Virus record (IMG/VR): IMGVR_UViG_2718217885_000011 | DNA length: 38,548 nt | Strand: one strand, 5' to 3' | Origin: a virus | Taxonomy: Duplodnaviria > Heunggongvirae > Uroviricota > Caudoviricetes | Shown: positions 4,266-24,984 of the stretch, in pieces | Layout of the letters: each line of letters starts with the position of its first letter | How positions within the stretch are numbered: position 1 is the first letter of the stretch | Made by a program: the position numbers and the translations under genes | Notes under the pieces: model-generated | Told to the model about the DNA's origin: nothing | The model's database searches: none | The model's input: the letters and a program-made list of their open reading frames with translations, nothing else

Positions 4266-4747
4266 GACAGCAGCCCTCCCACCGTTTTACTGATATCGCT
4301 TAAGGCAGACGTTGCCGTGTCCTGCAGATTATTCAGTTGCGCACTGAGATCACCGAACATATCGGACAGGGATTCATCCACTCGTTTGAGCGACAGGGTG
4401 AACTCAATCCGGCGCGGCATACCGTCGCGGAAAAACTCCGTTTTAGTCTGATTCAGTCCCTCAATCACATACATGCCGTAAATCGTGCCGCTGCCTTCAA
4501 TCAGGGGCCATGCTTTCCCCTGTTCTGCCATCTGCTCCAGTGCCAGCAACGACAGCCTGCCGCCTGTTATTTCCGGCATAAGAACACCGGAAAGCGTCAG
4601 CATGTCGTTTTCCGGTCCCAGAAACTGCGTGGACGGACGTCGGTTTACCCGACTGTTTGCCGCATGTCGCCAGCTGCGTTGATACTGCAGTTCCTGATAC
4701 GGAACGGTGCGCAGCATAAACACGTACAATCCCAGCACCATCATCAT
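4262..4747 (-). CDS. tail protein U
   Basis: 161-aa ORF, translationally coupled between T and D as in P2. Confidence 0.9.
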   Translation of the reverse strand: MMMVLGLYVFMLRTVPYQELQYQRSWRHAANSRVNRRPSTQFLGPENDMLTLSGVLMPEITGGRLSLLALEQMAEQGKAWPLIEGSGTIYGMYVIEGLNQTKTEFFRDGMPRRIEFTLSLKRVDESLSDMFGDLSAQLNNLQDTATSALSDISKTVGGLLS

Positions 4748-7700
4748 GCGTCGTATCCCCCCTGATCGCTGTAGTTACTCCTGGCTTTTGCCTTCAGCCT
4801 GCGTTCACGTTCATCAAGCTGGCGTGCCACCTCCCGCGCAATATCCTGCGCACTTTGTCCTAGCTGCGTCTGAATGATGATCTGCGTCGGTGCCTCAATC
4901 CGTTGAACGAGCGGCACAGTGGCTGCGCGACTCACAATTGCTTCTCCACCTTTCGCGGGAAGTGCCAAAGGGTGCAACGGTGGAAGCTCTGCTGGCGCGG
5001 CAGCAACGCCCATCATTCCGGCAACAACGGCAGCCAGTGCAGCTGTATTTCTCCGGCTGGTCACATTTGCCGGGCCGTTAACAATTTCCGGCCCGTTTTC
5101 ACCGACGATGCCAAACTGCCCGCGCGGGATATACCCGCCGCTGTCATACATCCCCGCAAAGCCATATCCCCATGATGGAAAACCACCCGATGGCATCATC
5201 ACTTTACCGTCTGCATTCACCGTCGCAGGTTGCTGACGCGTCACGCTTTCCGGCAGTTTTGCCTTTGCGGCCTCTTTACTGACAATGCCGAGCTTCTCCA
5301 GCAACCAGGAAACGCCGGATTTCAGGGAGTCCAGCGGATGCATGACCATATTCAGCCCTTCCGCCAGTGCCTCCCCGAATCGCCGCCCCATTGCCGCTGC
5401 GCTCTGCAGTTCGGCAGCGGTCGACTTAACGGGCGTCAGCAGATCAGTAAACCAGCCCCACAGCGCCTGCACTTTGTCGCCAATCCACTGGAACACGGGC
5501 TTAAGCGGTTCGAACGCTGCACTGATGGGACCTGCCGCCGCTTTGAATCCTTCCACCACGCCACCGAGAAATGCGGTGATGGGTTGCCAGTATTTCCAGA
5601 CAACCAGCGCCACGCCCGCCAGTGCAGTAACCACAAGACCTATCGGACTGAGCAGAGCACCTAACAGACCAGATATGGCATACAGGGCAACGCGCAGCAT
5701 CGCCAGTGGACCAGATGCCAGTACTCGCAGCACCGTGCCTGCGGCGGCCAGTCCACCGCGCAGTACCGCCAGAGGATTCATAAACATCACAGCAACAGCA
5801 CGTAAACCGGATAATCCAGACCGCAAAAGTGCAACCGGCGCACCTGCTACAGTTTTCAGGACATTTCCCGTCAGTGATGCCGTGCGGCGCAAAGACGACA
5901 ACGGCGCAGTAAGTAAACCTGCGGCGTTGCCCGATGAAGCAAGCCCGCGTCGCAGCAGTGCCAGTGGTGCGCCAGCCAGCCAGGACAACGCGCTGCTGGT
6001 TCGAGTTACTGCTGCCGTAACGGAAGATAACGTTTTGATACCCAACACAGAGAATCCCAGACGGATCACTGCCAGCGGCCCCAGCACTGCAGCCAGCGCC
6101 ACCGCTAAGGTGCCGAGGCCGACGGTAACCGCAGCCACAACAGCCGATGCTTTCATCAGTGTGCCTGTCAGTTCCGGGTTAGCTTCCACCCAGCGACGCA
6201 ACGCCCCCGTGACGCTTTTCACCGTGTACAGAATATCCATCAGCGGCTGGCGCAGCGTTTCGCCCAGGCTGCTGAAGGTGTTCTGCGCTCCGGTTTTGAC
6301 CAGCAACCACTGCGCAGAAAGTGAATCCTTGTTAATGTCGGATTCTTTCTGCATGGAGCCGAGCGCATCATTGCCCGCTGTCAGTTTTAACTGACGCTGC
6401 AGTTCCGGCAGGTTGTTTGCCAGTTTCGCCGCGTCATCGCCAAACTCTTTACCAAACAACATAGTCATGGCAGACAGGCGCTTGTCCTGCGGCAGCGCGT
6501 TTACCTTCTCCAGCACGCGCTGGATGGTTCCCATCGCATCCTTCGTCATCTGCTTTTCAATCACTTCAGGATTGAGTTTCAGCAGATTCATCCCTTCAAA
6601 GAAACTCTTGCTTTGCATGGTGGCAATGGACAATTCACGCACCATCGCGTTTGCTGCACTGGCTGCAACCTCTGGCGCAGCGCCCAGTGTCAGGAAGGTG
6701 GAACCCAGCGCCGCCGCTTTACGATAATCCAGACGGTCAGCCACACCGCCCAGACGTTGCATCACATCAATGATGTCTGCCCCTTTCGACATGGCGTTAT
6801 CATCCAGATAGTTCAGCGCATCACCGAGCTGTTCAATATTGCGGGTGGGGATTTTGTAGAGCTGGGCGATTTTCCCCAGACTTTCTGACAGTTCATCCGC
6901 TGGCAGCTCAAAGGCTGTTGCCGCCTTTGCTGCCGTACTGGCGAAGGCCAGCAGGTCACGTTTCTGATCTTCCCAGCTGTCGTCAGGGTTTGCGACGTTC
7001 ATGCGCGCACCACCTTCAACCAGTGCAGCGAAGTCCACCGCACCGTTTTCCATCGGCAACTGTTCGCTGGCAGCCTTGATGGCATCCTGCATTTCATAAA
7101 AACGTGCAGTGCGGTTGCCATTATCGTCACGCAGACCATTGACCTGCTTTGCCACACCTTTCATGGCATCTTCCATGCTGGTATAGCTTTTTACTGCCGC
7201 CATCACTGGCGCACCCATTGCCAGCCCTGCAGCCGTGGTGGTGGCTCCGGCACCTGCAATACGATCACGCACCTCCAGCGAACGGGCATAACTGGCACGC
7301 GCTGCATTCATCCTGCGCTGAGCTTCCCCCAGTCGCTTCAGCCGCGCCTCCTGTTTCGAAAGTTCCTGGTTATAACGTGATGTTTCACGGGCTAAACGGG
7401 CAGTTGCTCCCGCATCGTCTTTCGCAGAAATTCCCGCCCGGTACAGTTCAGCACGCACAAGCGCCGTCTGCTGCTGCAGCTTTTTCTGGCGTTCTTCCAG
7501 GCGCTGAACAGCCAGCCGTTGACGGCCCAGAGCAACAACCTGACGTTGCGAAGGCGGCCCCATCGCTCCCAGTTCCTGACTGAGCAAATTTGCACGCTGG
7601 CGGGCATAGTTCAGCCTGTCGCCTAATTTCTGATTTTCTGCCTGCAGCTTTCGGAAGCTGTCCAGACTGATCCCGGCCTGATCAAGCTGCTTTATTGCAT

Positions 7701-7821
7701 CGCGGGATTTTTTGACAGCAGCAGCCAGTTCTCTTGAACTGGCCTGCGCAGCACGGAATGGGCGGGTGAGTTTGTCAACCGCATTAAGAATGACCTGCAG
7801 ACGCAGGTTATTATCACTCAT
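4744..7821 (-). CDS. tail tape measure protein T
   Basis: 1025-aa ORF, coiled-coil N-terminal region and Ala/Gly/Leu-rich repeats typical of tape measure proteins. Confidence 0.9.
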   Translation of the reverse strand: MSDNNLRLQVILNAVDKLTRPFRAAQASSRELAAAVKKSRDAIKQLDQAGISLDSFRKLQAENQKLGDRLNYARQRANLLSQELGAMGPPSQRQVVALGRQRLAVQRLEERQKKLQQQTALVRAELYRAGISAKDDAGATARLARETSRYNQELSKQEARLKRLGEAQRRMNAARASYARSLEVRDRIAGAGATTTAAGLAMGAPVMAAVKSYTSMEDAMKGVAKQVNGLRDDNGNRTARFYEMQDAIKAASEQLPMENGAVDFAALVEGGARMNVANPDDSWEDQKRDLLAFASTAAKAATAFELPADELSESLGKIAQLYKIPTRNIEQLGDALNYLDDNAMSKGADIIDVMQRLGGVADRLDYRKAAALGSTFLTLGAAPEVAASAANAMVRELSIATMQSKSFFEGMNLLKLNPEVIEKQMTKDAMGTIQRVLEKVNALPQDKRLSAMTMLFGKEFGDDAAKLANNLPELQRQLKLTAGNDALGSMQKESDINKDSLSAQWLLVKTGAQNTFSSLGETLRQPLMDILYTVKSVTGALRRWVEANPELTGTLMKASAVVAAVTVGLGTLAVALAAVLGPLAVIRLGFSVLGIKTLSSVTAAVTRTSSALSWLAGAPLALLRRGLASSGNAAGLLTAPLSSLRRTASLTGNVLKTVAGAPVALLRSGLSGLRAVAVMFMNPLAVLRGGLAAAGTVLRVLASGPLAMLRVALYAISGLLGALLSPIGLVVTALAGVALVVWKYWQPITAFLGGVVEGFKAAAGPISAAFEPLKPVFQWIGDKVQALWGWFTDLLTPVKSTAAELQSAAAMGRRFGEALAEGLNMVMHPLDSLKSGVSWLLEKLGIVSKEAAKAKLPESVTRQQPATVNADGKVMMPSGGFPSWGYGFAGMYDSGGYIPRGQFGIVGENGPEIVNGPANVTSRRNTAALAAVVAGMMGVAAAPAELPPLHPLALPAKGGEAIVSRAATVPLVQRIEAPTQIIIQTQLGQSAQDIAREVARQLDERERRLKAKARSNYSDQGGYDA

Positions 7822-7947
7822 CGTTGGCCCCGCTTCTCTGAATCGCTTTATACCGCCATTCCAGCACTTCGGTCAGCGGCATAACGTCAGTAACGGATGG
7901 CGGCCAGTGAAAGATGGTGGCGATATCTGCCACCAGATCGTCAACCG

Positions 7948-8250
7948 TCAGGCTGTCGGTAAACCGGCAAGCACCGACTTCTTCAACAAAAAAGTGACAA
8001 CCTCAACCGACATGGCAGTGAGATCTGCCGGGTCCATCTCTGCAATTTCCTGTGCAGTCAGTGCCGGGCTGGAGATGCGGGGGATCACGGTCATCATCGC
8101 GTTCACATCCATATCCATAATCGCCTGCAGGCGTGTACCGCGCAGCGCACCGGACTGCGGTTTACGCAGCACAATTTCGGTGATTTCTGTTTTACCGCGC
8201 TTGATGGGGGTATCCAGTTGAATAGTCTTTTCAGTCTGCTTATCGCTCAT
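7948..8250 (-). CDS. tail assembly chaperone E; an E+E' frameshift product would extend to ~7814
   Basis: 100-aa ORF upstream of T; a -1 frame stays open from the TTTTTTG heptamer to a stop overlapping the T start codon. Confidence 0.85.
   Translation of the reverse strand: MSDKQTEKTIQLDTPIKRGKTEITEIVLRKPQSGALRGTRLQAIMDMDVNAMMTVIPRISSPALTAQEIAEMDPADLTAMSVEVVTFLLKKSVLAGLPTA
7987..7993 (-). other. slippery heptamer TTTTTTG, candidate -1 programmed frameshift site for E+E'
   Basis: T TTT TTG in the E frame (codons F-L) 14 codons before the E stop; -1 frame open to ~7814. Confidence 0.5.
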
Positions 8251-8304
8251 TTTGCTGTCCTGTAAATTGGGTTCTGGCGCGGTATCCCGCGCCGTTCAGA
8301 TACA

Positions 8305-8820
8305 TCAGAGGCCGAGGGCGTTGCGGTGCGCTTCCATCAGGTCCACACCGTCCACAATTTCCACCATGTTGATAAGGTCCACTTCATAGAGCACCTCACC
8401 ATTTATAGTCAGCTTCGCGTAGCTGTTGGTACTGGTCACTTTGGTGGTGTTGCTTTCGCCCGTCTTCCACTCGCCGGAATCCACTTCTTTGTGACGTCCA
8501 CGCACCACAAGCTCCACGGCCTGCACTTCCCCGGTATCGTCACGCTGGATAGAGCCGGTAAAGCGCAACTGGATACCATCCACCGTGGCTTTGCCCATCT
8601 GCTTAAACAGCAGCAGTTCAGTACCACCAATGGAAAATTCCGTATCCAGTGCGCCGTCATCCAGCCCCAGATCCACATCCACTGCACCCGGCATTCCGCC
8701 GCCGCGATACTTCTCATATTTGCGGGTAAATTTCGGCAGCGTCAGCGACTCAACGATCCCCTGCCAGTTGTTCCCGTCGTTAAACAGGTTCAGGTGTTTT
8801 AATTTGCGTGGTAAAGCCAT
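8305..8820 (-). CDS. tail tube protein FII
   Basis: 171-aa ORF, P2 FII position and size. Confidence 0.9.
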   Translation of the reverse strand: MALPRKLKHLNLFNDGNNWQGIVESLTLPKFTRKYEKYRGGGMPGAVDVDLGLDDGALDTEFSIGGTELLLFKQMGKATVDGIQLRFTGSIQRDDTGEVQAVELVVRGRHKEVDSGEWKTGESNTTKVTSTNSYAKLTINGEVLYEVDLINMVEIVDGVDLMEAHRNALGL

Positions 8821-8829
8821 GTTGTCCCC

Positions 8830-10002
8830 TTACGCGCTGACCTGGCTGGCGAAATTCACCAGGTACTGATCGGTGATGCGCTGACGCAGCATCAGGTTTT
8901 CAAGTGGCGGCACTGGCGTGTAGTCGTAGTCGATGGTGAGTTTTCCGGCTTTCAGCGTGTCTTTGTCGTTCACCGACTCATCCAGCCAGCAATCACCACC
9001 AATGAGATAGCCCTGACTGACCAGGCTGCGCATTTTGGCGCGGATACCCTCGATAATGTCGCGCGCCAGCGACGGGTTAAGCGGTTTATCCACCGCCCAC
9101 ATGTGTGCTTCTGCCATCGTGTCCATCAGCACCTGCGCCGTGCGGGTGTAGTTTTCGAAGGCAAAGAGCGGGTCATCACTCAGGCAGCGGGAACCCCAGA
9201 AGCGGAAACCGTCTTTACGCACAAGCGTGGTGACGTCGTTCTGGTTCAGCAGACCTGCATCGGTTGCCGGGTCCTGCAGATCCCAGAACACATCTGCAGA
9301 AATTCCGGTGACACCGTTCACGCCCACGTTGGACAGGCTTTTGTGCCATCCGGTCTGCTCGTCAATTTTGGCGCGCAGACCAAGCGCACGGGCGGTAGCA
9401 TATGCCGTTGCTTCGGCATTCAGCACCGTGTCCCAGCCAGTAAAGTCAGGCCAGATCAGCATCCCTTCGCGCTGGCTGAAGTTTTCGCGGTAAGTGATCG
9501 CCTCCTGCACTGTCTTGCAGCCATACGCTGACAGGTAAGCAAATCCACGCAGGCTTTGCGCCACGCCCAGCAACTCAGTAGCTACCGCCTTGGTGTCGTG
9601 GCCTGGCACGCCGAGAATGCGCGGTTTAACGCCGAGCTGTGACTGGGCAGATAACAGGGCTTTCATACCTGTTTTTTTACCTTCAGCAGTCACTGCGCCG
9701 ATGATATTGGTCGTGGTTTCGTCTTCCGTTTCACCCTGCGGCACACGCACAACAATGGTCACGGGTTTTGCCTGGTCAGCGATGGCATCCAGCGAACGGG
9801 CCAGAGTACCTGACTCACCCGCTTTACCGCTGGCAGTCAGCACATCAGTGATCAGCACGGGTTTATTAAGAGGAAACATTTTTGCATCGGCATCATCGCC
9901 CGTGCAGACCATACCCACGATGGCGGTGCTCACCGTGGTAATAGATCGGGTGCCTTCGTTGACTTCAACAACGCGCACCCCGTGGTGGTAATCCTGAGCC
10001 AT
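8830..10002 (-). CDS. contractile tail sheath protein FI
   Basis: 390-aa ORF, P2 FI position and size. Confidence 0.9.
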
Positions 10003-10078
10003 AGTGGCGAACCTCCTGATTGGATTAGGCTTCGCCCTATGTTGAAGTGATTGTGCCTGACAAACAGCTAAGCGCAGT

Positions 10079-10096
10079 TGTGTCGTTATTCACACA
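10079..10096. promoter_or_regulatory. candidate Ogr-dependent late promoter element (TGT-N12-ACA dyad) upstream of FI
   Basis: TTGTGT-cgttattc-ACACAA palindrome about 85 bp upstream of the FI start codon. Confidence 0.4.
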
Positions 10097-10144
10097 AAAT
10101 AACGGTATTTGTCTGCTTGCAGGGATAATCAACATAATGCTGAT

Positions 10145-10711
10145 TCAGGGGGATTCATTGATCTTATTTGCCGGAAATTTTCTATAAATGGTAGAAACGC
10201 CTACATCAAAAATCAGTGCAATACGCTGTCTTGATTCTCCGGCCTCGAGTAAACGCCCAATCTGTGCCCACTGTTCGGTGGTCAACTTAGGACGGCGTCC
10301 ACCTACTCTGCCTTTGGCACGAGCTGCAGCCAGCCCTGCCCTGGTACGTTCAACTATCAGTTCGCGTTCCATTTCAGCTAGGGCACCCATGACATGAAAA
10401 AAGAAACGGCCCATTGGGGTACTGGTATCAATACTGTCAGTCAGGCTTCTGAAATTCACACCACGCTGGCGCAACTCTTCTATCAGCGTAACAAGATGCC
10501 GCATACTGCGCCCCAACCTGTCCAGCTTCCAGACAACCAGCGTGTCTCCTGCCGATAGTGTCCTGAGTAGTTTTTTCAGCCCCGGTCTGTCGGACTTAGT
10601 GCCACTGATTTTGTCCTCAAAAATCCGCTCACATCCCGCGCAGTTCAGTGCATTACGTTGCAAATCGGTGTTCTGGTCATTTGTTGACACGCGTACATAG
10701 CCAATAAGCAT
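10145..10711 (-). CDS. serine recombinase, DNA invertase of Pin/Gin/Cin/Hin family
   Basis: N-terminal GYVRVSTNDQ catalytic serine motif, C-terminal HTH; near-identity in motif blocks to E. coli e14 Pin by recollection; second ATG chosen for SD spacing. Confidence 0.9.
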   Translation of the reverse strand: MLIGYVRVSTNDQNTDLQRNALNCAGCERIFEDKISGTKSDRPGLKKLLRTLSAGDTLVVWKLDRLGRSMRHLVTLIEELRQRGVNFRSLTDSIDTSTPMGRFFFHVMGALAEMERELIVERTRAGLAAARAKGRVGGRRPKLTTEQWAQIGRLLEAGESRQRIALIFDVGVSTIYRKFPANKINESP

Positions 10712-10738
10712 GATCATCCCCCTGAATAAAAACCGGAG

Positions 10739-11152
10739 ATGATGCCAGTTAGCTGTTACCTCTGCATTTTCTTAAACGTTGGTTTGGGAGAAGCGGCAAA
10801 ACGGGATGTGGGGACAGGGGAAAATCAGATACCGGACATGGCCTCTTTTGCCAGTGGTGATGGATGGATGAAATTACCCAACGGGAAAATCCTGCAATAT
10901 GGTCGTGGTGCGGTTACGCCGACATTATCGACGCAAACAATGAGAATTACATTCAGCATCCCTTTCCCCAAAAAAGCGGACTGCGCCATGCTTACTCATT
11001 CTGGTGATGGCGGTGCGCCTTTAGGCGCTGGGCGAGGGTTCGTGATGACTGCAGAAGGCCCAACGTTAACCGGCTTTAATTCTGCTTACAGAACGTCATC
11101 AACCAGCGACACGGTATCGATGAATTACAGTTGGTGGGCTGTTGGTGAGTAA
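10739..11152 (+). CDS. alternative tail-fibre C-terminal segment (Sv'-like), silent in current orientation
   Basis: 137-aa ORF inside the invertible segment, opposite orientation to H, Gly/Thr/Ser-rich receptor-tip-like sequence. Confidence 0.55.
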   Translation: MMPVSCYLCIFLNVGLGEAAKRDVGTGENQIPDMASFASGDGWMKLPNGKILQYGRGAVTPTLSTQTMRITFSIPFPKKADCAMLTHSGDGGAPLGAGRGFVMTAEGPTLTGFNSAYRTSSTSDTVSMNYSWWAVGE

Positions 11153-11163
11153 TTTTATTCAGG

Positions 11164-11616
11164 GTGATTTATATGAACGAATATGTTTATAGCGCAAGGC
11201 ATAATGCTTTTTTCCCTGTGGATATGATTGATAAATATAAATCAGAGGGATGGGATTTATCAGACGCTAAGGAAGTAAATCAAAATATTATCAGTGAGTT
11301 TATGGCTGAACCGCCACAAGGAAAAATCCGTATTGCCGGAGATGATGGGCTGCCTGCGTGGGCAGATATTCCTCCACCCACGCATGAAGAACTTATTGAA
11401 ATTACAGAATCAGAAAGACAGCTACTAATTAACCAGGCCAACGAATACATGAACAGTAAGCAATGGCCCGGTAAAGCCGCTATTGGTCGTCTGAAAGATG
11501 ATGAACTGGCGCAATATAATTTGTGGCTGGATTATCTGGACGCACTGGAACTGGTTGATACCTCCAGTGCTCCAGATATTGAATGGCCTACGCCTCCGGC
11601 AGTTCAGGCCAGATGA
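11164..11616 (+). CDS. tail fibre assembly protein (alternative copy, tfa')
   Basis: 150-aa ORF; C-terminal SSAPDIEWPTPP motif shared with the opposed tfa copy (TSTAPDVIWPELP). Confidence 0.8.
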   Translation: MIYMNEYVYSARHNAFFPVDMIDKYKSEGWDLSDAKEVNQNIISEFMAEPPQGKIRIAGDDGLPAWADIPPPTHEELIEITESERQLLINQANEYMNSKQWPGKAAIGRLKDDELAQYNLWLDYLDALELVDTSSAPDIEWPTPPAVQAR

Positions 11617-12190
11617 CATCCGGCGCGGTGCTGGTATCTGTTGCCGTCACCGCGTCAATGTAATCCAGCACGGCGTTAAGTCGGGTTGTTTCTGCCTGCG
11701 TCAACTTCCGTCCGGCCTGTAATTTCAGCTGAATCAGACTAATGGAAACCATTGCTGCATCAATCAGTGACTGGCGCTGTGCTTCTGCCGCTTCTACTGC
11801 GGCGCTATGCTGTGCCTCAGTATCCGTCACCCATTTCTCACCATCCCATTTATCATATGGCGTTAACGGGGCGATAGTGGTTGTATTTTCAGGGTAATCA
11901 CCCGGAGCTGTGATTTCTTTGGCGTCTCCCGTTTCGGTGTTATAGACGATTTCACCGCGATGGTCTGACACATATTCCCATGATTTTAAATCCACAGAAC
12001 GGCAAATTGTATAACCAGCTTTATGTGTAACTGGTGCATCTAAACAAGAACATGCCGGGATACCGACGCCAACCGCAAGATATTCAGTTGATGTGGAAAT
12101 ATATTCCCGCGTTTCACCATCATAGTTATAAACGGTAATATCCCCTGCCTTTGTAGCAACAAGTCCACTATTTAATATTGCTTTATCCAT
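11588..12190 (-). CDS. tail fibre assembly protein (Tfa/G-like), active orientation
   Basis: 200-aa ORF; start ATG overlaps stop of the tail-fibre C-terminal reading frame (TAATG). Confidence 0.85.
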   Translation of the reverse strand: MDKAILNSGLVATKAGDITVYNYDGETREYISTSTEYLAVGVGIPACSCLDAPVTHKAGYTICRSVDLKSWEYVSDHRGEIVYNTETGDAKEITAPGDYPENTTTIAPLTPYDKWDGEKWVTDTEAQHSAAVEAAEAQRQSLIDAAMVSISLIQLKLQAGRKLTQAETTRLNAVLDYIDAVTATDTSTAPDVIWPELPEA

Positions 12191-12468
12191 TATGCTGCTC
12201 TCACGATATAGTTAAATGCAATGCTTCTTGGTCTGTTCTCTGAGGCAGTTGGCACTACTCTTGAAGCATCAAAATTGACTAAATGAGGATTGTTTGGGGT
12301 ATTTGGAATGATTGTGGTGTTACCTATCGTATTACGAAGTGCTGATTGACTTACAAAAACACCACTCGCTGTATTAAAGCTAATAGCCGCATTAGCTTCG
12401 GTTTGTCCATTACCAAATGTGCCGGTTATATTACGAATAGCATCCCCCTGAGCAGACAGAATTTCGCG
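12190..12468 (-). other. tail-fibre C-terminal coding segment, out of frame with the H ORF
   Basis: frame +1 relative to H encodes REILSAQGDAIRNITGTFGN...ENRPRSIAFNYIVRAA (conserved Mu/P1/e14-type fibre C-terminus) and ends TAA overlapping the tfa ATG. Confidence 0.6.
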
Positions 12469-13727
12469 CCCGCGTCAATACCGCGCCCGTCATCCCAACC
12501 ACGAATAAACTCACCACGTAAATCAGGCAATTTATTTGTCGGATAAGCCTTTGCCAGTTCCGGATATTCTTCAGCAGAAAAAACCGCACCGTTGCATTTC
12601 AGCCAGCCTGTTGGCGGAGTGGCGGAAGGCCACGGAACAGGGACACCAACAGGTAATGCAGAGCCTTCTCCCAAACCAAGGTATGCGAGAAGACCAGCTA
12701 CATCCTTTCCACTCAAATTGGTAAGCGTATTGTCCAGCGGTTGTTTACCTGCCAGCGCATTAAGCATTGTCGTGGCAAAGTTCGGATCATTCCCCAGTGC
12801 CGCCGCCAGTTCGTTCAGTGTATCCAGTGCAGCAGGTGCAGAACCCACCATTCCTGCAATCGCCGATTTCACAAAAGCCGTAGTGGCAATCTGTGTATTG
12901 TTGACCGACTGCGCCGCCGTGGGGGCTGTTGGCGTTCCGGTGAGTGCCGGACTCGACAACGGTGCTTTTAGTGCCAGCGCATTGTTAATGGTGGTACTGA
13001 AATTCGGATCATTGTTAATGGCTGCGGCTATTTCTTTCAGCGTGTCCAGCGTGGCTGGTGCACCATTAATAAGGGCCGTCAGTGCCGCCTGTACAAACGC
13101 AGTGGTCGCAACCTGCGTGGTATTATTCCCCGCCGCTGGCGTTGGCGCTTTGGGGGTTCCGATAAATGTCGGGCTGGCTTTTGGCGCGTACTGTGAATGC
13201 GGGTCCGGTGCGGCAAGATGTTTTGCCATCTGATCATCCGCGTACACCTTCAGCTCCAGTGCCTTGTCATCCACATACTTGCGGGTTGCCAGCACTACAG
13301 CAGGGTCGATTTTCAGGGTGATATTGTCCGTGCTGCTGGTAATCAGCACCATGCGCACGGTCTGAGTGCGCCCGCTACCTTCAGCCAGTTGCGGCTTATA
13401 GCTTTCCGGGCAGTTGCCCACGGCAATCAATGCCCCGGACTCATCAAACAAGCCCACTTCACGTATCCACCAACCGCCCTCGTTTTCAGGGATCACCTGT
13501 TCGGCAATAATCTGGCTGCTGTTCTGCGGGTCGATATAAAGCATATTCAGCGCAGCCCGGCGTTTCTCATTTACCAGTGCCGTCTGCTTTGCGTCCGGCG
13601 TTGGCAATACTCCACCGCCATCGCCCACCGCCATATGGGTAATTTTTAGCGGCACACCGAGCGCGGCGGCGCTGGCAAGTTTCGCCGCGCCAATATCCGT
13701 CAGCAGGGTATAAAATTTTGTGCTCAT
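12426..13727 (-). CDS. tail fibre protein H (N-terminal and shaft part; ORF terminates prematurely, see findings)
   Basis: 433-aa ORF with P2 H-like N-terminus and internal NDPNF-containing repeats; ends ...GRGIDAGAKFCLLRGMLFVI*. Confidence 0.85.
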   Translation of the reverse strand: MSTKFYTLLTDIGAAKLASAAALGVPLKITHMAVGDGGGVLPTPDAKQTALVNEKRRAALNMLYIDPQNSSQIIAEQVIPENEGGWWIREVGLFDESGALIAVGNCPESYKPQLAEGSGRTQTVRMVLITSSTDNITLKIDPAVVLATRKYVDDKALELKVYADDQMAKHLAAPDPHSQYAPKASPTFIGTPKAPTPAAGNNTTQVATTAFVQAALTALINGAPATLDTLKEIAAAINNDPNFSTTINNALALKAPLSSPALTGTPTAPTAAQSVNNTQIATTAFVKSAIAGMVGSAPAALDTLNELAAALGNDPNFATTMLNALAGKQPLDNTLTNLSGKDVAGLLAYLGLGEGSALPVGVPVPWPSATPPTGWLKCNGAVFSAEEYPELAKAYPTNKLPDLRGEFIRGWDDGRGIDAGAKFCLLRGMLFVI

Positions 13728-14329
13728 GGATTCACTCTCATTGTGTCAATAACATGGACCGCCCCGCCTTCATGCGCGGTGCCACCGGAAATAATCGTTT
13801 CGTTGATATACGGATAGATCGTGATTTCTTCGCCAAGATAGCTGGCGGCTCCCACCCAATGCGGGCCGCTGGTCTGCAGATTGATGGACATGCCGATCAT
13901 GTGGCGGCTACATGGTTTGGCATCGCTTATCAGTCGCTCAAGTTCCAGATAGGTATCTTCAGTGATGCCCTGGTCCTGCACGCCGATATCCAGGCGAAAC
14001 GTGCCCGGTGTTTCTCCGGTCTGCCACCACTCAATAATGCGGATCAGGAATCCGAACGGTTCCACCACCCGCCGCACGGCACTGGTGGTTCCTTTATGCT
14101 GATGAATATAAAAAGCATCCTTCACTACCTGGCGTTTGACGCTTTCTGTCCAGCCCTCGTCCCAGCGATCCACAGAGAACGCCCAGGCGAGATAAGGCAG
14201 GAAGCTGACCGGACAGGTAGCCGGATTCCACAAGTCACGCAGCGGCACCTGCAAATCAGAAATCCCGCTACAGGTTTGCGCCAGTCGGCGCTCCAGTGAA
14301 GTTGAACCCGGTGGCAGCAGACTATTCAT
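13724..14329 (-). CDS. baseplate protein I
   Basis: 201-aa ORF, P2 gpI-like (LWNPxTCP...LAWAFSVDRWDE). Confidence 0.85.
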   Translation of the reverse strand: MNSLLPPGSTSLERRLAQTCSGISDLQVPLRDLWNPATCPVSFLPYLAWAFSVDRWDEGWTESVKRQVVKDAFYIHQHKGTTSAVRRVVEPFGFLIRIIEWWQTGETPGTFRLDIGVQDQGITEDTYLELERLISDAKPCSRHMIGMSINLQTSGPHWVGAASYLGEEITIYPYINETIISGGTAHEGGAVHVIDTMRVNP

Positions 14330-15230
14330 CCGTTCCTCCGTTGGTTACGCTCCACTGCGTACATGATGCCGCCTGTGTTTTGTTCAGGACCACATCCGCC
14401 AGCGGAGAAGCCAGTTCCACACGTTGAACACCCTCAACATGCAGAGCAGCAAAGATGGCGCTACGGCGAATATCCCGACCAAGCCTCGTCTGGCTGGCAA
14501 TGTACTTCTGCAGACTGGCTTTTGCCGCTGCCATTACCGGCTCTGCTTCCGGTCCCGGATAGAGAAAAATGGTGGCTTCCACGCGATACGGGATGATTTC
14601 TGCGCTGCGAACCGTAAGACGGTCAGCCACCGGGCGGACGTTCTCACTGTTCAGAGCTTTTTCCACCACGTCCAGCAGGTCTTTTTCTGCAGTTCCATCG
14701 CCTTCGCGGCTAAGGACAGTCAGCACCACCTCTGCAGGTGCCGGGCTGGTTGCACTGGCATCCGCCACCCGACCGTCGGCGCTTCGGGCATGAAATTCAT
14801 AAGCTGCAGTTGGCCCCGCAACAGAAAGCCCTTCAAAGGCTGCTGGCACACGCAGGCGCAACGCTTCATCGCTTTCCATCACAGCTGCAACGGGCGGCAC
14901 AGCATCATTATCAGCAGGCGTCACCGTCAGGCGTGTCACGTTGTAGTTGGCAGCGAGCTGGTCAAGATCGCCGCCCATCGCGTAAGCCACCATCACCGCC
15001 TGCGCGGCTTCGTTAATACGCTGGCGCAGAAGCAACTCACGGTAAGCGTTCTCCTGCAACAATTTAGTGGCGGGTTCAGATTCCAGTTCCAGCGTGCGGA
15101 TCACTGCTTCCTGCTCATCTTTCGGATGAAGCGCCACAAATTCGGCCTTGCGTTCGGCAAGCAGCGTCTCAAAGTCCGGCACATCCACAATCTGCGGTGC
15201 AGGCAACTGCGAAAGGTCAATCACTGCCAT
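14322..15230 (-). CDS. baseplate assembly protein J
   Basis: ~302 aa from internal Met (MAVIDLSQLP); ORF track extends to 15269. Confidence 0.85.
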   Translation of the reverse strand: MAVIDLSQLPAPQIVDVPDFETLLAERKAEFVALHPKDEQEAVIRTLELESEPATKLLQENAYRELLLRQRINEAAQAVMVAYAMGGDLDQLAANYNVTRLTVTPADNDAVPPVAAVMESDEALRLRVPAAFEGLSVAGPTAAYEFHARSADGRVADASATSPAPAEVVLTVLSREGDGTAEKDLLDVVEKALNSENVRPVADRLTVRSAEIIPYRVEATIFLYPGPEAEPVMAAAKASLQKYIASQTRLGRDIRRSAIFAALHVEGVQRVELASPLADVVLNKTQAASCTQWSVTNGGTDE

Positions 15231-15576
15231 TCTCTGCTCCTGTTGATACGGAAAGGGACACAGGCACACCGTTATTCCGCCGCCCGGTCAGCTCCACCAC
15301 CATTGAACCGTCAAAATTGCTGTTGATGGTGATGGAATCCAGCGTCAACCGTGGCTCCCAGCGACTCAGCGCCACATACACTGCCGACATGACCTGCAGG
15401 CGTAATGCCGGATTTTGTGGCTGATCTATCAGTGCCGACAGCAGGGAACCATATTCCCGGCGGGCAATACGGCTACCCTGCGGTGTCAGCAGAATGTCCC
15501 GCACCGACTGGCGCAGATGATCAATATCAGTAATGACTTTGCCGCTGGTATTGTTCATCCCGCTATAAAGCGTCAT
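15217..15576 (-). CDS. baseplate protein W (GPW/gp25 family)
   Basis: 119-aa ORF, P2 W position and size. Confidence 0.85.
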   Translation of the reverse strand: MTLYSGMNNTSGKVITDIDHLRQSVRDILLTPQGSRIARREYGSLLSALIDQPQNPALRLQVMSAVYVALSRWEPRLTLDSITINSNFDGSMVVELTGRRNNGVPVSLSVSTGAENGSD

Positions 15577-16151
15577 ACCGGGCCTCCGGTTGTATCGCCG
15601 CCTTTCAGGACGCCAGTATGCTGATGCGCATCAACCACGATCCCGTTAGAACTCATCGCTCCGCCGCCCTGGGTAACGCCACCATTGATCACCACTTCGC
15701 TGTTAATGCGCGTGCGGTCAGCCTCCAGTACAAACTCACTGGTTTTCATGGTGATGTTGTCAGCAGCCTCAATGACCATTGATTTGATGCCCCTGACATA
15801 CCAGCGCCCGGTGGCGGGTTCGTATTCAAACCAGCCACCGTCAGGATGTTCTGTCACGCAGGCGTCCGCCGACGTCGACGGTGGTGCGAACTGATTCGAA
15901 TAGACAGCGGGCAGCGCAAAGGCGGTTTCCAGATTGCCGCCCAGACTCAGCAGCACCACCTGCTCACCTTCCGATGGTCGCCACCATGTACGGGCATTCC
16001 CGGCACGCAGCGTCAGCCAGCTGATCCAGTTGGTTTCAAGCTCGCCCGTTTTCACCCGGCAAAGCCAGTTTTCCCTGTCCACTTCGGTGACTACCCCTGT
16101 GCGGATCAGGTTGGTGATAAGGCGCATGATTTCGGTTAATTGTGCGTTCAT
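15573..16151 (-). CDS. baseplate spike protein V
   Basis: 192-aa ORF, N-terminus resembles P2 V. Confidence 0.85.
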   Translation of the reverse strand: MNAQLTEIMRLITNLIRTGVVTEVDRENWLCRVKTGELETNWISWLTLRAGNARTWWRPSEGEQVVLLSLGGNLETAFALPAVYSNQFAPPSTSADACVTEHPDGGWFEYEPATGRWYVRGIKSMVIEAADNITMKTSEFVLEADRTRINSEVVINGGVTQGGGAMSSNGIVVDAHQHTGVLKGGDTTGGPV

Positions 16152-16197
16152 AGGGAAAGGTTGCCATCAGGGGAAGAAAGGCGGCAGTGCTGCAACT

Positions 16198-16215
16198 TGT
16201 ATCAGTGCTGATACA
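16198..16215. promoter_or_regulatory. candidate Ogr-dependent late promoter element upstream of V
   Basis: perfect palindrome TGTATCAG-TG-CTGATACA (TGT-N12-ACA) in the S-V intergenic region. Confidence 0.45.
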
Positions 16216-16219
16216 AAGA

Positions 16220-16666
16220 TCACCCCGCCAGCCATTGCAGAATCATGTCGCGGGTCATTGCCTCAACATCATCATTTACACCCAGCAGGCGGCGCTCTGC
16301 GTAACGGACCTCCGGTCCTTTGCGACTGACGCGATCACGCAGGCCGTAATGGTGAACACGGGCAATACGCTGCACCTTGCCTTCAAACTGTACGCTGGCA
16401 GAGTCGGCGCTGGCGGCAGTTTTCAGGTATTTTGTGGTGCGCAACTTTGCAAACATCTGACGTTTGATGCGGCCTTTTTTGCTGCGTGCTGTTACCCTGC
16501 GCGGTTCATAACTGCTGCCATCTGGATTGCGCTGCATCCTGATATTCTGCTGCTGTGTCCGGCGCAGTTCCTGCGCCAGCTGGCGCATCATGCGGCTTCT
16601 CGTGGCTGGTTCCAGATTCGCCAGCAAGGCACTCAGCCAGTCGTCCACCTTCTGCAGTTCAGCCAC
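16220..16666 (-). CDS. tail completion protein S
   Basis: 148-aa ORF, P2 S position. Confidence 0.85.
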   Translation of the reverse strand: MAELQKVDDWLSALLANLEPATRSRMMRQLAQELRRTQQQNIRMQRNPDGSSYEPRRVTARSKKGRIKRQMFAKLRTTKYLKTAASADSASVQFEGKVQRIARVHHYGLRDRVSRKGPEVRYAERRLLGVNDDVEAMTRDMILQWLAG

Positions 16667-17111
16667 GTTTCACCGTCCACATTTCTTCAGGTTCATCGGG
16701 TTCTGCTACAGCTTCAACGCTCGACACACTGCCGTCAGTACTGACCAGCACACGTTCCGTCAATTGCAGGTTAAGGCTGATATCACAGACATCGTTGCGC
16801 AAAATATCCACCTCAAAGGTGAATAGCTTTTCCCGTAACGCCGGGTTATTGATGGCATCGGGCTGGTTATCCCGAAGCCACAGTAAAACCGGGGCCATCA
16901 GCAGATTCTGGTCGCCGCTGAAATCCTCTATCACCACGTTCAGGGTATAGCGGTACTCCCATGACATGGAGCTGGCCCCCGTGGCAACCAGCGAACCGTT
17001 ATCCACAAACAGATGCAGTTTGTCCGGGTTATTGCGGACATAAGGCACCGCTTTATTGAGGGCGTGGCGCAGGGATTGTGGTTTGTTCACTGTTTCGCTC
17101 CTGACACGCAA
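16659..17111 (-). CDS. tail completion protein R
   Basis: 150-aa ORF, P2 R position. Confidence 0.85.
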   Translation of the reverse strand: MRVRSETVNKPQSLRHALNKAVPYVRNNPDKLHLFVDNGSLVATGASSMSWEYRYTLNVVIEDFSGDQNLLMAPVLLWLRDNQPDAINNPALREKLFTFEVDILRNDVCDISLNLQLTERVLVSTDGSVSSVEAVAEPDEPEEMWTVKRG

Positions 17112-17343
17112 TAATCATGTCCACTTTGTCTGCACAGACCGCCCAGGCGGCCTCCGTTTCATCCAGCAACGCATTCAGATCACCGTTAGTGCGCGGTGCT
17201 GCCTGCTCCAGCCGACACGGCGTCACTCGCGGACAACCACTGACGGTAAGCTGCACCTCCGGTGAGTGCCGGACGTTCCCGCAGCCGGATAATGTCAGCA
17301 GGCAAAGGAGTATCAGCCCAGTGGCGTAAATCCTCGTTCTCAC
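17053..17343 (-). CDS. LysC / Rz1-like outer-membrane spanin (lipoprotein), embedded in lysB in another frame
   Basis: signal peptide with lipobox LTLSGC; ORF nested out of frame in the 3' part of lysB, as for Rz/Rz1. Confidence 0.6.
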   Translation of the reverse strand: MRTRIYATGLILLCLLTLSGCGNVRHSPEVQLTVSGCPRVTPCRLEQAAPRTNGDLNALLDETEAAWAVCADKVDMIIACQERNSEQTTIPAPRPQ

Positions 17344-17614
17344 GTTTCAGTTCCTCGATCCGGCGTTGTCGTTGTCTCAGCTGTGCGCTGGTCTGTTCTG
17401 CTTCGGCATAGAGCCGCGCCTGCTCCCGGTTATTGGTTTCAGTCAGAATGGACAGGCTGATAAGCTGGCTGTTGCTCTTTGCCAGTGCCTGGCTTTTGCT
17501 CTGCAGCTCGTTTGCCTGCGTGCTGATGGTCTGGCTGGCATCAGCCAGCCGCCACGTCTGCCAGCCCAGCGCCGCCAGTAATAACGCCAGCACAACCAGC
17601 AGCAACCGGTTCAT
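17186..17614 (-). CDS. LysB / Rz-like inner-membrane spanin
   Basis: 142-aa ORF with N-terminal TM helix and coiled-coil. Confidence 0.75.
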   Translation of the reverse strand: MNRLLLVVLALLLAALGWQTWRLADASQTISTQANELQSKSQALAKSNSQLISLSILTETNNREQARLYAEAEQTSAQLRQRQRRIEELKRENEDLRHWADTPLPADIIRLRERPALTGGAAYRQWLSASDAVSAGAGSTAH

Positions 17615-17988
17615 GCTGCTACCTGTTGCGCCATCTGATTACGGGTGATCCAGAAGGCAATAACGGTCAGCAGATAAAAGACCAGGGTAATAGCCCACCC
17701 CGTCCATGCGAGACTTACAACAATCAGCAATCGCATCACCCAACAGATAAATACATTTTCTTTTCGGGTAATTGTCTTCAGCAAAGATGCCCTTAACTCC
17801 TGCCAGAGCGGGCCATTCTGAATTAACGCAGCCAGTGCTACCGGAATTACCGCCCATGTCAGCAAACAGGCTACCCAAACGCCGGACGCTGCCAGTACCG
17901 GAAAGATCCCCTGCGGATACATCATTGCTGCGATTAACAGCGCCATCCATAACATCAGAAACAGTCCGCTGATTAATTTCTTTTTCAT
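17611..17988 (-). CDS. LysA-like lysis-timing membrane protein
   Basis: multi-TM ORF after endolysin; probable start at MKKKLISG; ORF track extends to 18060. Confidence 0.7.
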   Translation of the reverse strand: MKKKLISGLFLMLWMALLIAAMMYPQGIFPVLAASGVWVACLLTWAVIPVALAALIQNGPLWQELRASLLKTITRKENVFICWVMRLLIVVSLAWTGWAITLVFYLLTVIAFWITRNQMAQQVAA

Positions 17989-17989
17989 T

Positions 17990-18463
17990 TCAGTTTGCTC
18001 CCTGTAAACACCAGGCCATCTCCCGCGCACGGCGGTTATCCAGCCCCTGATTAAACACACCTTTTACATAAACCCAGCGCGGCAACTGTCGGCACGCATC
18101 CGCCCAGCGCCGCTGATTGAGCAATTTCACCAGCGTGGAACTACAGGCATTGCCCGTTCCCACGTTGAAGGCAAACGACACCGTAGCGTCATACACCTTC
18201 TGTGGTGGCTGTTGCTTCACACACCTTTCCAGCGCCCGCTCCACACGCAGCACGTTGGAGATCAGCCCTTCTGCTGCCTGTCGTTCCGTGATTGTTTTGC
18301 CGGGAATGACGCCCGATGTATTACCAATGCCGTCGGTCCAGACACCCGCGCTGCACTGATACGGCTGCAGACGACAGCCTTCGTAATCGGCAATCAGTTT
18401 CAGCCCCTCCACGGAGGTGTGAAGCTGCTGAAAACCCGGCAGCGTGGCAGCAATAGCCAGCAC
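17990..18463 (-). CDS. endolysin K (phage lysozyme, glycoside hydrolase family 24)
   Basis: E-x8-D-x5-T catalytic pattern (YEGCRLQPYQCSAGVWTDGIGNT) and FNVGTGN / RR motifs of P21 R-type lysozymes; GTG start. Confidence 0.85.
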   Translation of the reverse strand: MLAIAATLPGFQQLHTSVEGLKLIADYEGCRLQPYQCSAGVWTDGIGNTSGVIPGKTITERQAAEGLISNVLRVERALERCVKQQPPQKVYDATVSFAFNVGTGNACSSTLVKLLNQRRWADACRQLPRWVYVKGVFNQGLDNRRAREMAWCLQGAN

Positions 18464-18481
18464 GGCCCGACAAGGCAGCGT

Positions 18482-18697
18482 TTAACGATTGATGGATTCA
18501 TAGTCCTCCCGCGAGATCTGCCCGTCGCGCAGAAGCTGGTAGGCTTTGTGTTTGTAGTACCAGTTGATAGCCAGCATCAGCACACCAATCATCAGGCCGC
18601 CCAGCGTTGAGGCATCCTTGATGGACAAATCGCCCAGCCAGGCCAGCACGACGGCGATGCAATACGTGATAAAGGCGCTGATTCGCTCAAGCGTCAT
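18482..18697 (-). CDS. holin
   Basis: 71-aa ORF with two hydrophobic helices and charged C-terminus, immediately upstream of endolysin. Confidence 0.75.
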   Translation of the reverse strand: MTLERISAFITYCIAVVLAWLGDLSIKDASTLGGLMIGVLMLAINWYYKHKAYQLLRDGQISREDYESINR

Positions 18698-18700
18698 AAT

Positions 18701-18904
18701 TCAGTCCCATAGCTGGACGGTCTGCACGGTGGTGGTGGTCGGTATGTCCGGCAGCTCCACCTGCAGCCCGTGAGGTAAAAAGGGGCCGTATTCGGCAAGC
18801 CCCGGATTTGCCTTCAGTACCTGCTCCGTGACACCCTGCGTGCGCCCGTAATGACGCCAGCAAAGCGCGTCCACCGTGTCATACTGATACGCACGCACTT
18901 TCAT
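18701..18904 (-). CDS. tail protein X
   Basis: 67-aa ORF, P2 X position and size. Confidence 0.8.
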   Translation of the reverse strand: MKVRAYQYDTVDALCWRHYGRTQGVTEQVLKANPGLAEYGPFLPHGLQVELPDIPTTTTVQTVQLWD

Positions 18905-19431
18905 CAGATAAGCTCCACTGTGCAGTGCGGCGCATCCTGCACCCGGCTGATGGCCCAGCGGGCGTCACGCCACAAATCACCGCTGGCTTCCGCCAGTTCT
19001 TCGCCTCGCTTCACACCGGATGCCGTGGCGTCATAGTCCTGGTATCGTTCGTTGAGCATGGCGCGTGCCCAGCAGTAAACCGCGTTGAAATAGTGCTGAA
19101 TGCGCTCACTTTTCCCGTCCAGCTGTTCCGCCGGAACCTCTGCCAGCGAGGCATACCCCAGCATCTGCTGGCGTCTGCGAAACTCATACAGCTCTGCGTT
19201 GACCTCCGAAATTGCCGACAGGGCAACCTGCTTTAAACGCGGCTGCGTCACCGTGCCGTCAGTGCGCATGACACTGCGAAACTCCGACAGGTCCACATCA
19301 GGCCAGAACGGCGTATTTCTGATGATTTCCGCCTGTTCCGGTGCCTGTTCTGGCGCAACAAACTTCATGCTGCTTTCTCCTGAAATAGAGGGCGGTGGAC
19401 GGGGTTTTGATGAGGCTGTGCCTTTCGCCAC
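18904..19431 (-). CDS. head completion/stabilisation protein L
   Basis: 175-aa ORF, P2 L position. Confidence 0.85.
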   Translation of the reverse strand: MAKGTASSKPRPPPSISGESSMKFVAPEQAPEQAEIIRNTPFWPDVDLSEFRSVMRTDGTVTQPRLKQVALSAISEVNAELYEFRRRQQMLGYASLAEVPAEQLDGKSERIQHYFNAVYCWARAMLNERYQDYDATASGVKRGEELAEASGDLWRDARWAISRVQDAPHCTVELI

Positions 19432-19463
19432 CCCGTGCCGCCCGTGCGCGGGGGCACGTTCTG

Positions 19464-20114
19464 TCAGCGGCTGTCATTGCGCAGTCTGCGCTCCAGCTGC
19501 TGTTTGTCTTTTTTCACGCCACAGCGGGGATCGAGCTGTAACGCATGGTTGAGATGATTAAGGGCGGACGCCGGATTGCTTTCACTCAGGACAACGCCAA
19601 TCGCTTTATGCAGACGCGCCCGTGACTGGTCCGGCATATCCAGACCGTCTGTCAGCTCCAGCGTCTGCAGCAACAGATCAGCATCAAAGCCGGTGGCGGC
19701 AAGCATTGCGCTCTGCGCGGCGTCTGCCATTTCCTCTGCCAGCACGGTCTGCACGTTGCGGTTACCCAGCGGCATCACCCAGCCATGACGCAGGGCATGA
19801 CGCCCGATCTCCAGCGCTCCGGCATAATCTCCGGCATCAATGCGCCACAGCATCACGTACATCAGCACGTCATCCTGTTGAGCGCCTCCGGCAGCCAGGA
19901 CACCCTCTGCCCAGGCGGCGTACTTCGGCAGCAGCTCCACCTTGATTTCCGCTTTTTTGACCGTGGACTGAACGCCCTTGAGACGGCGGCGGTCTTCCGC
20001 CAGTTGCAGCAGCATCAGGTCATAGCCCGATGCGTGGCGAACACTGCCGCCCTCGCGGGCGGCCTGTTCAGCCTGAACGCGCAGGCGATGCTGCCGTGCG
20101 GGACTCAGGCTCAT
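19464..20114 (-). CDS. terminase endonuclease (small) subunit M
   Basis: 216-aa ORF, P2 M position. Confidence 0.85.
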   Translation of the reverse strand: MSLSPARQHRLRVQAEQAAREGGSVRHASGYDLMLLQLAEDRRRLKGVQSTVKKAEIKVELLPKYAAWAEGVLAAGGAQQDDVLMYVMLWRIDAGDYAGALEIGRHALRHGWVMPLGNRNVQTVLAEEMADAAQSAMLAATGFDADLLLQTLELTDGLDMPDQSRARLHKAIGVVLSESNPASALNHLNHALQLDPRCGVKKDKQQLERRLRNDSR

Positions 20115-20117
20115 GGA

Positions 20118-21176
20118 TTACGCTCCTGTTTCGGCTGCGGCGGCGCTGAAATCACCAATCTGGATGTTTTCCACCAGTGCGGCGCAGCGGTAGTCCTCAA
20201 CCACATAGGCTTCGTTAACGGATTCAAAGTTTTCAATCCGGTCACGTTTCGGGTTGTCGATAACTGAACGGCGGCGGGTGTCTTCCTGCCAGTAGATGGA
20301 CAGGTTATCCAGACGGGTGATCAGCAGCGCATTCGGCGGGAAGAACGGCGCACGCACGGCCTGCAGGCCACCCATGCGTTTCTGACTGATGATCATATCG
20401 GCAGCCAGTTTTTCACTGTTTTCCTGCTCTTTGTTGACCAGCGGGAAATACTTGTCAGACAGCAGTTCACGACCGCAAATCACCACCAGATCGTCATCGT
20501 CCTGATAGACCACGTCGATAAGCTCGTTAACGGCATCCATCACCACGGCGTCCAGGTTGGCATATTCGCCACCTTTCCCGACTTTCACTGCACCCGGTGT
20601 GGTTTCACCGCCCGTGGTGCTGCTGCCCATGACGTGATCCGGTGCATCCTCACGGATTTTCTGCAGCCAGCCTTTATTCACATCCTGCAGTAGCGGGTTT
20701 TCGCTACGGTTGGAGGTTTTCGCACGCTTCACGCCGTTAAAGCCGATCATGATGCGGTCCAGTGCCTGACGTTTCACGATGGCGTCACGGATACGCACCT
20801 GGAAATCCTGAAACTTCGCCCACAAGTCCAGCTTCGCGTAGGTCAGCACCGTGTCAAAGTTGGTCTGCTCGCATTTGTATTCCACATCGACCATCAGCGT
20901 CGGATCGACAGGTTCACGCTCTTTCGCGGTGGTGTCAGTGGTTCCGGCAATGGTGCTGCCAACACCCAGCCCCAGCAGCTGACCGGACTGCTCAGTCACT
21001 GGCGTGACGTTAATCAGCGTCAGGAAAGCGGCGGACTGCTGGATCTGGTCTTCCAGCGTCTGCTGTACAGACGGCTCCACGGTGAACTTGCTGGACAGTT
21101 CTTCAACTGCCACACCGTTCAGACGCGCCAGCTGCTGCAGGTAAGCGTTAAAAGCAAAGCGGGTATTCTTCTTCAT
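20118..21176 (-). CDS. major capsid protein N
   Basis: 352-aa ORF, P2 N position and size. Confidence 0.9.
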   Translation of the reverse strand: MKKNTRFAFNAYLQQLARLNGVAVEELSSKFTVEPSVQQTLEDQIQQSAAFLTLINVTPVTEQSGQLLGLGVGSTIAGTTDTTAKEREPVDPTLMVDVEYKCEQTNFDTVLTYAKLDLWAKFQDFQVRIRDAIVKRQALDRIMIGFNGVKRAKTSNRSENPLLQDVNKGWLQKIREDAPDHVMGSSTTGGETTPGAVKVGKGGEYANLDAVVMDAVNELIDVVYQDDDDLVVICGRELLSDKYFPLVNKEQENSEKLAADMIISQKRMGGLQAVRAPFFPPNALLITRLDNLSIYWQEDTRRRSVIDNPKRDRIENFESVNEAYVVEDYRCAALVENIQIGDFSAAAAETGA

Positions 21177-21192
21177 CAGGTTTTGTGCTCCA

Positions 21193-22026: not shown

Positions 22027-22104
22027 GAGCCGTGCTCCGTTAGAAAAAACTTACTGGAGCCTTATGGTTGCGGTGATGGGGGCAGTGAAACAATGCGCGG
22101 TATT

Positions 22105-22122
22105 TGTACCGACAACCACACA
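22105..22122. promoter_or_regulatory. candidate Ogr-dependent late promoter element in divergent O/P intergenic region
   Basis: TTGT-accgacaaccac-ACAA (TGT-N12-ACA). Confidence 0.35.
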
Positions 22123-22168
22123 AACCGCAGGCGGGGAAAGCCTTCATTCAAGGCTGTAGGTTTGTGCC

Positions 22169-24966: not shown

Positions 24967-24984
24967 GTTTCAGAGAAAATAGAG

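Follow-up and report, generated by a model that had tools for sequence, protein, structure and literature searches.

Does the tail-fibre gene of this prophage really stop short, or has a base been lost on the way from the bacterium to the database? The window (the whole stretch of DNA that we analysed, 38,548 nucleotides) holds a complete P2/186-like prophage of Escherichia coli inserted beside ybjL. Its fibre gene H is read on the minus strand as an ORF of 433 amino acids (12426-13727) that ends ...GRGIDAGAKFCLLRGMLFVI*. Another frame, over 12190-12468, reads REILSAQGDAIRNITGTFGN...ENRPRSIAFNYIVRAA and closes on a TAA (12190-12192) that shares one base with the ATG (12188-12190) of tfa, the gene for a tail-fibre assembly chaperone. 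The initial annotation had H ending at 12426 and the other frame running to a TAA over the tfa ATG at 12190, and every one of its sequence statements proved correct. It left two explanations standing side by side, a sequencing error in a homopolymer or an inactivating frameshift. The evidence favours the former, a homopolymer error of sequencing or assembly, and the inactivating frameshift has become the less favoured of the two. In our judgement the frame break in H is probably a consensus error, made in base calling or in assembly, in one complete-genome assembly.

The record does contain the frame break, which comes down to a single missing G. When H was aligned with four homologues (from E. 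coli 64EVA, G47-1 and E14, and stf of phage HK97), one gap column appeared: the window reads GACGC-GGGCGCG where all four have GACGCGGGGCGCG. Adding one G gives a fibre of 512 amino acids that matches H of a relative, L037 (GCA_012247785.1), at 100% identity, and the idea that one restored nucleotide would fuse the two frames is thus borne out by both the alignment and the product. The exact 512-amino acid protein is recorded on 28 contigs. An 81-nt query spanning the site was matched over its full length by 28 complete E. coli genomes; all of the matches listed are one base longer than the window sequence and none reaches 99% identity. At least 80% of the restored 163-amino acid C-terminus is read in a single frame in 227 phage records. 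The break is therefore no chance reading, since those 28 complete genomes are one base longer and those 227 phage records keep to one frame. The cost to H, as it stands in the record, is 92 native residues.

Table 1. Positions in the window of the tail-fibre switch, its neighbours and the two one-base deletions
Feature	Position	Strand	Details
Tail gene J	14322-15269	-	
Tail gene I	13724-14329	-	
Present H (tail-fibre) ORF	12426-13727	-	433 aa; residues 1-420 native, then 13 out-of-frame residues (AKFCLLRGMLFVI) and stop; Pfam Phage_tail_fib 1-150, Collar 361-408
Crossover site within H, where constant and variable parts meet	12666-12691	-	TTCTCGCATACC-TT-GGTTTGGGAGAA; encodes ...LLAYLGLGE; core dinucleotide 12678-12679
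Frame-break site	12469-12471	-	GGG (CCC on the + strand) vs GGGG in all relatives; from the alignment, pairwise differences and 81-nt query
Displaced 3' end of H	12190-12468	-	92 codons (REILSAQGDAIRNITG...IAFNYIVRAA) and TAA, now out of frame
tfa, tail-fibre assembly chaperone for the Collar-type cassette	11588-12190	-	200 aa; Pfam Caudo_TAP; exact protein on 204 contigs
tfa', chaperone for the alternative cassette	11164-11616	+	Pfam Caudo_TAP; in relatives 147 aa, called from the ATG at 11173
Silent alternative C-terminal cassette (gp53-like_C type)	10781-11152	+	Inversion fuses it in frame to H residues 1-~354, giving 473 aa; Pfam Gp53-like_C
Partner crossover site adjoining the invertase gene	10767-10792	+	TTTTCTTAAACG-TT-GGTTTGGGAGAA; core 10779-10780
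Invertible segment	10779-12679	.	1,901 bp; holds the two alternative C-terminal cassettes of the fibre, each paired with a chaperone gene
Serine DNA invertase	10145-10717	-	Intact; 188-190 aa; Pfam Resolvase and HTH_7
Second private one-base deletion	18466-18468	-	CCC on the + strand vs CCCC in the closest relatives; N-terminal membrane segment of the endolysin gene
Endolysin gene	17990-18501	-	170 aa, intact in relatives; split here into a 33-aa ORF (18400-18501) and a 157-aa GTG-start ORF (17990-18463)

The break sits in one arm of a switch. The best inverted repeat of the region (10767-10793 paired with 12665-12691) can be read as two 26-bp crossover sites, which lie in inverted orientation, carry the same central dinucleotide (TT/AA) and fit the general form of the gix, cix, pix and hix sites. 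Beside one of them lies the invertase gene, with the sheath gene after it in map order. Its product matches a solved DNA-invertase chain, 3UJ3, over its full length (E = 1e-92), and we take that chain to be Gin of phage Mu. The invertase (10145-10717) recombines the site at 10767-10792 with that at 12666-12691 and so flips the 1.9-kb segment between them. With each flip roughly the last third of the fibre and its chaperone are exchanged, the fibre tip being either Collar-type and paired with tfa or gp53-like and paired with tfa'. In the window it is the gp53-like end that is promoterless, as the ORF 10739-11152 (+).

Both states of the switch exist in nature. A close relative, L038 (GCA_011814005.1), has the two flanks 100% identical and the segment inverted, with breakpoints that coincide with the crossover sites, and L037 has the segment in the same orientation as the window. 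The draft contigs L039 and L040, together with a Logan contig, L018, begin or end at the crossover sites (L040 starts at the 10767-10792 site), as expected of an assembler faced with a culture that contains both orientations. A weaker inverted repeat near the break (10110-10126 and 12442-12458) was also considered as the place of crossover and set aside; L038 and the contig ends put the exchange at 10779/12679. Inverting 10779-12679 in silico yields a fibre of 473 amino acids, identical to the H protein of L038, and the tentative suggestion in the initial annotation that the flipped cassette would read in frame is confirmed by this naturally flipped relative. Its placing of the break next to the crossover site has to be corrected: the G run lies within the invertible segment and the site (12666-12691) is about 195 nt upstream of it.

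How widely is the deleted allele shared? It was found neither among 5,426 complete E. coli genomes nor in viral, metagenome or species-representative collections, and relatives of the same clone, represented by three assemblies that cover the fibre site, do not have it. An exact 22-mer spanning the deletion gave no viral and no metagenome matches; its one match in species-representative genomes, a Eubacteriales metagenome-assembled genome with unrelated flanks, was rejected as chance. In the protein table a single contig, a 5,233,459-bp E. coli chromosome, carries the 433-amino acid product, and an exact look-up of that product in the gene-position index returned no record. Intact forms of H that are partial or silent are on record at 162 and 155 amino acids (contig-edge partials) and at 176 (the ORF that is silent when the segment is flipped), whereas none of the deleted versions, which would be 83, 76 and 97 amino acids long, is on record. 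Nine further loci with an identical tfa all have GGGG, and the tract is four bases long in every other genome examined, three only in the window. One genome, L043 (GCA_036681185.1), seemed to stop H at the same codon and proved to be a chimeric cassette join without the G-run region.

The comparison with near relatives was made against a composite of the nearest ones (L038 for 1-17820, L007 for 17821-19513 and L018 for 19514-38548), all of them other isolates and not a re-sequencing of the source isolate. Against this composite the 38.5-kb window shows 0 substitutions and exactly two one-base deletions, each of which turns a C4 run of the + strand into C3 and breaks a gene that the relatives keep intact. 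L038 is 100.000% identical over 1-10793 and 12665-17820, and inside the inverted segment it departs from the window only in the exchanged base of the half-site and in the C that the window lacks. Over 19514-38548 L018 matches at 100.000% identity, and L007 differs from the window over 17821-19513 solely by the second deletion. Host DNA makes up 2.6 kb of the window and is error-free, a point that speaks against an artefact. The prophage had been described as possibly decaying, a picture hard to keep for a sequence that, besides two one-base deletions, has no substitutions against relatives with all their genes intact.

The window belongs to a clone that can be recognized by its tape-measure and OLD-nuclease variants and that is present in about 70 index blocks. 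Few substitutions separate this clone from its next relatives, among them C to T at the Dcm sites of window positions 4862 and 36323. These clone-level substitutions are real, because independent draft assemblies share them; the two deletions, by contrast, are confined to the one complete assembly.

The second deletion is of the same type as the first and came to light in the comparison with relatives. It falls in the endolysin gene, whose intact counterpart in L007 is a lysozyme of 170 amino acids (Pfam Phage_lysozyme), and it was present in 0 of the 943 complete genomes that carry the 81-mer at this site. The 157-amino acid endolysin ORF was tried as a marker for the deletion and turned out to be uninformative, its start being called on thousands of contigs that keep the full span; on contigs with that start the distance from holin to lysozyme is the full 708 nt, against 707 nt in the window. 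For the clone-mate SRR20438831, contig-end arithmetic suggests, indirectly, one base more than the window between 12665 and 19514.

What, then, removed the two bases? The analysis has shown the missing base and its uniqueness, the crossover sites, the two orientations in nature and the two intact products; that the missing base in H is an artefact and not a mutation of the strain is something we infer. An assembly error is favoured because a single assembly has the deletion allele and near-identical relatives lack it, and because 38.5 kb of sequence hold two homopolymer contractions of the same type and no substitutions at all. It is favoured too because other public assemblies of this prophage carry artefact-like breaks of their own: 64EVA has A6 turned into A7 in the invertase and in the silent cassette (both annotated 'frameshifted'), GCA_047262165.1 has GATC-to-GATT changes and indels in its copy of the prophage, and GCA_036681185.1 has its chimeric H. 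Finally, the pattern matches the known error profile of long reads, whose assembly errors are mostly short indels at homopolymers, with deletions commonest after four to five identical bases (PMC12007338). If the assembly did err, its consensus shortened a G4 run (C4 on the + strand) to three bases, and the true H would be an intact 512-amino acid tail fibre of the P2/186 type, its stop overlapping the start of tfa. In mutation-accumulation lines of E. coli small indels are roughly ten times rarer than substitutions, so two indels and no substitutions would be unlikely as neutral change.

The window contains 526 homopolymer runs of at least four bases, including T8, A7 and C6, and all of these agree with the relatives. 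Whatever removed the two bases was therefore not a gross homopolymer failure. An observation that speaks against an artefact is that only two short C4 runs were hit, when in the classic nanopore pattern the longest runs fail first.

The main rival is that the deletion in H is a genuine mutation that arose very recently and only in the sequenced isolate, which together with the endolysin frameshift would mean a prophage freshly crippled. The break is, after all, physically in the record, and the flipped product of 473 amino acids is intact. Real slippage mutations also arise in homopolymers, and slippage in short runs is a genuine mutational route; loss of the endolysin could plausibly be selected in a lysogen; and the correctness of the longest homopolymers tells against a grossly error-prone assembly. 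A slight hint in the same direction may come from the accession numbers, which run from ANO77056 (OLD) to ANO77088 (tfa) in 32 steps where the relatives have 35 genes. That count is compatible with H and the endolysin gene having been annotated as pseudogenes from the start, and it is silent on the cause. Yet a real mutation has to live with zero substitutions beside two deletions of one type in 38.5 kb, with the absence of either deletion from every clone-mate examined and from other public sequence, with a fibre frameshift that brings the host no obvious benefit, and with a G4 tract too short to be hypermutable. We regard a true mutation in H as doubtful. Equally unlikely is the larger claim that both deletions are real and very recent, the endolysin and one of two host-range states having just been lost in the first steps of prophage grounding, before any substitutions had gathered.

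It could also be asked whether the two-ORF arrangement is natural and functional, through programmed ribosomal or transcriptional frameshifting or through phase variation of the G run layered on the inversion switch. The attraction is a formal one: the break is in a G run and the downstream frame stays open to a proper stop. No homologue examined has the arrangement, and the comparison that the initial annotation proposed, with a natural two-ORF state in mind, found all homologues reading through in one frame. Programmed frameshifting would need a -1 shift, but the sequence GCG GGC GCG AAA TTC offers no slippery heptamer of the form X XXY YYZ. Phase variation would have to act on a tract of only three to four bases whose length does not vary among the other genomes examined that carry it. 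To judge from this absence of conservation, a functional two-ORF gene is most improbable and effectively refuted.

Returning to the reading we prefer, an error of assembly, the organism itself most probably lacks the frame break, and the annotated 433-amino acid product (WP_335648367.1) should probably not be kept as a protein. Were the deletions real, H as now oriented would yield a fibre cut short after residue 420, without its receptor-binding tip and non-functional, and only the flipped orientation, with its 473-amino acid gp53-like fibre, could give infective particles. With both deletions real, the inversion switch would turn fibre production on and off instead of choosing between two receptors. 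In either event the biological weight is small: a textbook switch in a common prophage, with a break that is an assembly error or a private and trivial loss-of-function mutation. The practical lesson is one of caution, for apparent prophage pseudogenes in single long-read assemblies need to be checked against clone-mates before they are called decay.

Set beside the homopolymer deletion errors of long-read assemblies, the two deletions look familiar in being single-base contractions of short runs that break genes and are private to one assembly. They differ in touching two C4 runs only, the longer runs being correct.

The claim that the C-terminus of H is conserved held up well, and the conserved part is a collar/tip module. 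The closest comparison is HK97 Stf, whose C-terminus shares 90.7% protein identity and about 94% DNA identity with the restored 163-amino acid variable cassette. In HK97 stf this end is read in one frame and is followed by tfa, as in restored H. HK97 differs in being a siphovirus and in having an unrelated N-terminal part, and neither a second cassette nor an invertase gene was found in its annotated stf-tfa region. A more distant likeness (about 36-42% identity, over the collar only) is to the tip of T4 gp37 (PDB 2XGF) and other collar-domain fibres (9CUY), which have the same order of collar, then tip, then a terminal ...IAFNYIVR(L)A strand. T4 gp37 itself ends ...IAFNYIVRLA, where restored H ends IAFNYIVRAA. 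We take the last strand in the 2XGF structure to return and complete the collar domain, and because of this an H protein ending at residue 420 would be left with neither the tip nor the strand that closes the collar.

The switch as a whole is a standard tail-fibre inversion switch of the Gin/Pin type, with all the defining features that we looked for. Like the Gin, Cin, Pin and Hin switches (the G segment of Mu, the C segment of P1 and the P region of e14 among them), it has an adjacent serine invertase; two inverted 26-bp sites, one of them within the fibre gene; and two alternative C-terminal cassettes, each with a Tfa chaperone of its own and both fused in frame, the Collar-type one after the G is restored. 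As in those switches, both orientations are found in nature (L037 as against L038). Unlike the switches of Mu, P1 and e14, this one resides in a P2/186-like prophage, where the constant part is an N-terminus of the P2 H type (Pfam Phage_tail_fib) and the cassettes are of the Collar and gp53-like_C types. The same layout occurs in hundreds of E. coli genomes, and the arrangement, common as it is in this species, is nothing new in kind.

Short-read contigs of same-clone relatives (clone-mates) end at the crossover sites of the invertible segment. The contigs are L018 (Logan SRR20438831_154), L039, L040 and L041, and their ends were compared against window 10779-10793 and 12658-12691. Either orientation is fixed in whole assemblies, L037 (GCA_012247785.1) lying as in the window vs L038 (GCA_011814005.1), which is flipped. 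Read together, the contig ends and the two fixed states imply an active invertase and cultures mixed in orientation. The silent cassette reads open from an upstream ATG (MMPVSCYLC...), which is why many annotations list it as a free-standing "gp53-like" protein of 136-137 aa; in the flipped state the counterpart silent ORF is a 176-aa "Collar" protein. Both ORFs arise as side products of the switch and are not genes in their own right.

We saw a perfect 12-nt inverted repeat (ATTCAGGGGGAT; 10143-10154/10716-10727) flanking the invertase ORF, about 0.3 perfect 12-mer inverted repeats being expected by chance in 3 kb, and a 16-nt repeat (10716-10731/11153-11168) with one copy in the invertase start region and the other where the silent cassette meets tfa'. 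These repeats could be chance or a common translation-initiation sequence.

The endolysin gene carries the second one-base deletion private to the window (18466-18468, C4 to C3 on the plus strand), which splits the 170-aa endolysin into ORFs of 33 and 157 aa; the deletion was present in 0 of 943 complete E. coli genomes with the 81-mer across this site. Other assemblies of the same prophage have defects of their own that resemble artefacts: A6 to A7 frameshifts in the invertase and silent cassette of E. coli 64EVA (L006; positions 11286 and 11860), GATC to GATT changes, indels and a holin-lysozyme fusion in GCA_047262165.1 (L019/L030), and a chimeric H joining both cassettes in GCA_036681185.1 (L043).

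Clone-specific C to T substitutions that hit the inner cytosine of CCWGG (Dcm) sites, at window 4862 and 36323 and at position 7877 of L039 (window 4783), give P to L changes in the tape-measure protein and the OLD nuclease. They are genuine, since independent draft assemblies have them in common, and look like 5-methylcytosine deamination hotspots.

Window coordinates of the endolysin gene, silent cassette and accessory genes
Feature	Coordinates	Strand	Setting
Silent cassette	10739-11152	+	
Endolysin gene	17990-18501	-	
PDDEXK_GAPS4-family protein	26815-27912		Accessory region 25010-27912
Unannotated ORFs of 374 aa and 233 aa			Within 25010-27912
OLD-family AAA/TOPRIM nuclease	35653-37422		Adjoins integrase

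The PDDEXK_GAPS4-family protein and the two unannotated ORFs are placed between the portal gene and dinI. The cargo, here and beside the integrase, looks like anti-phage defence.
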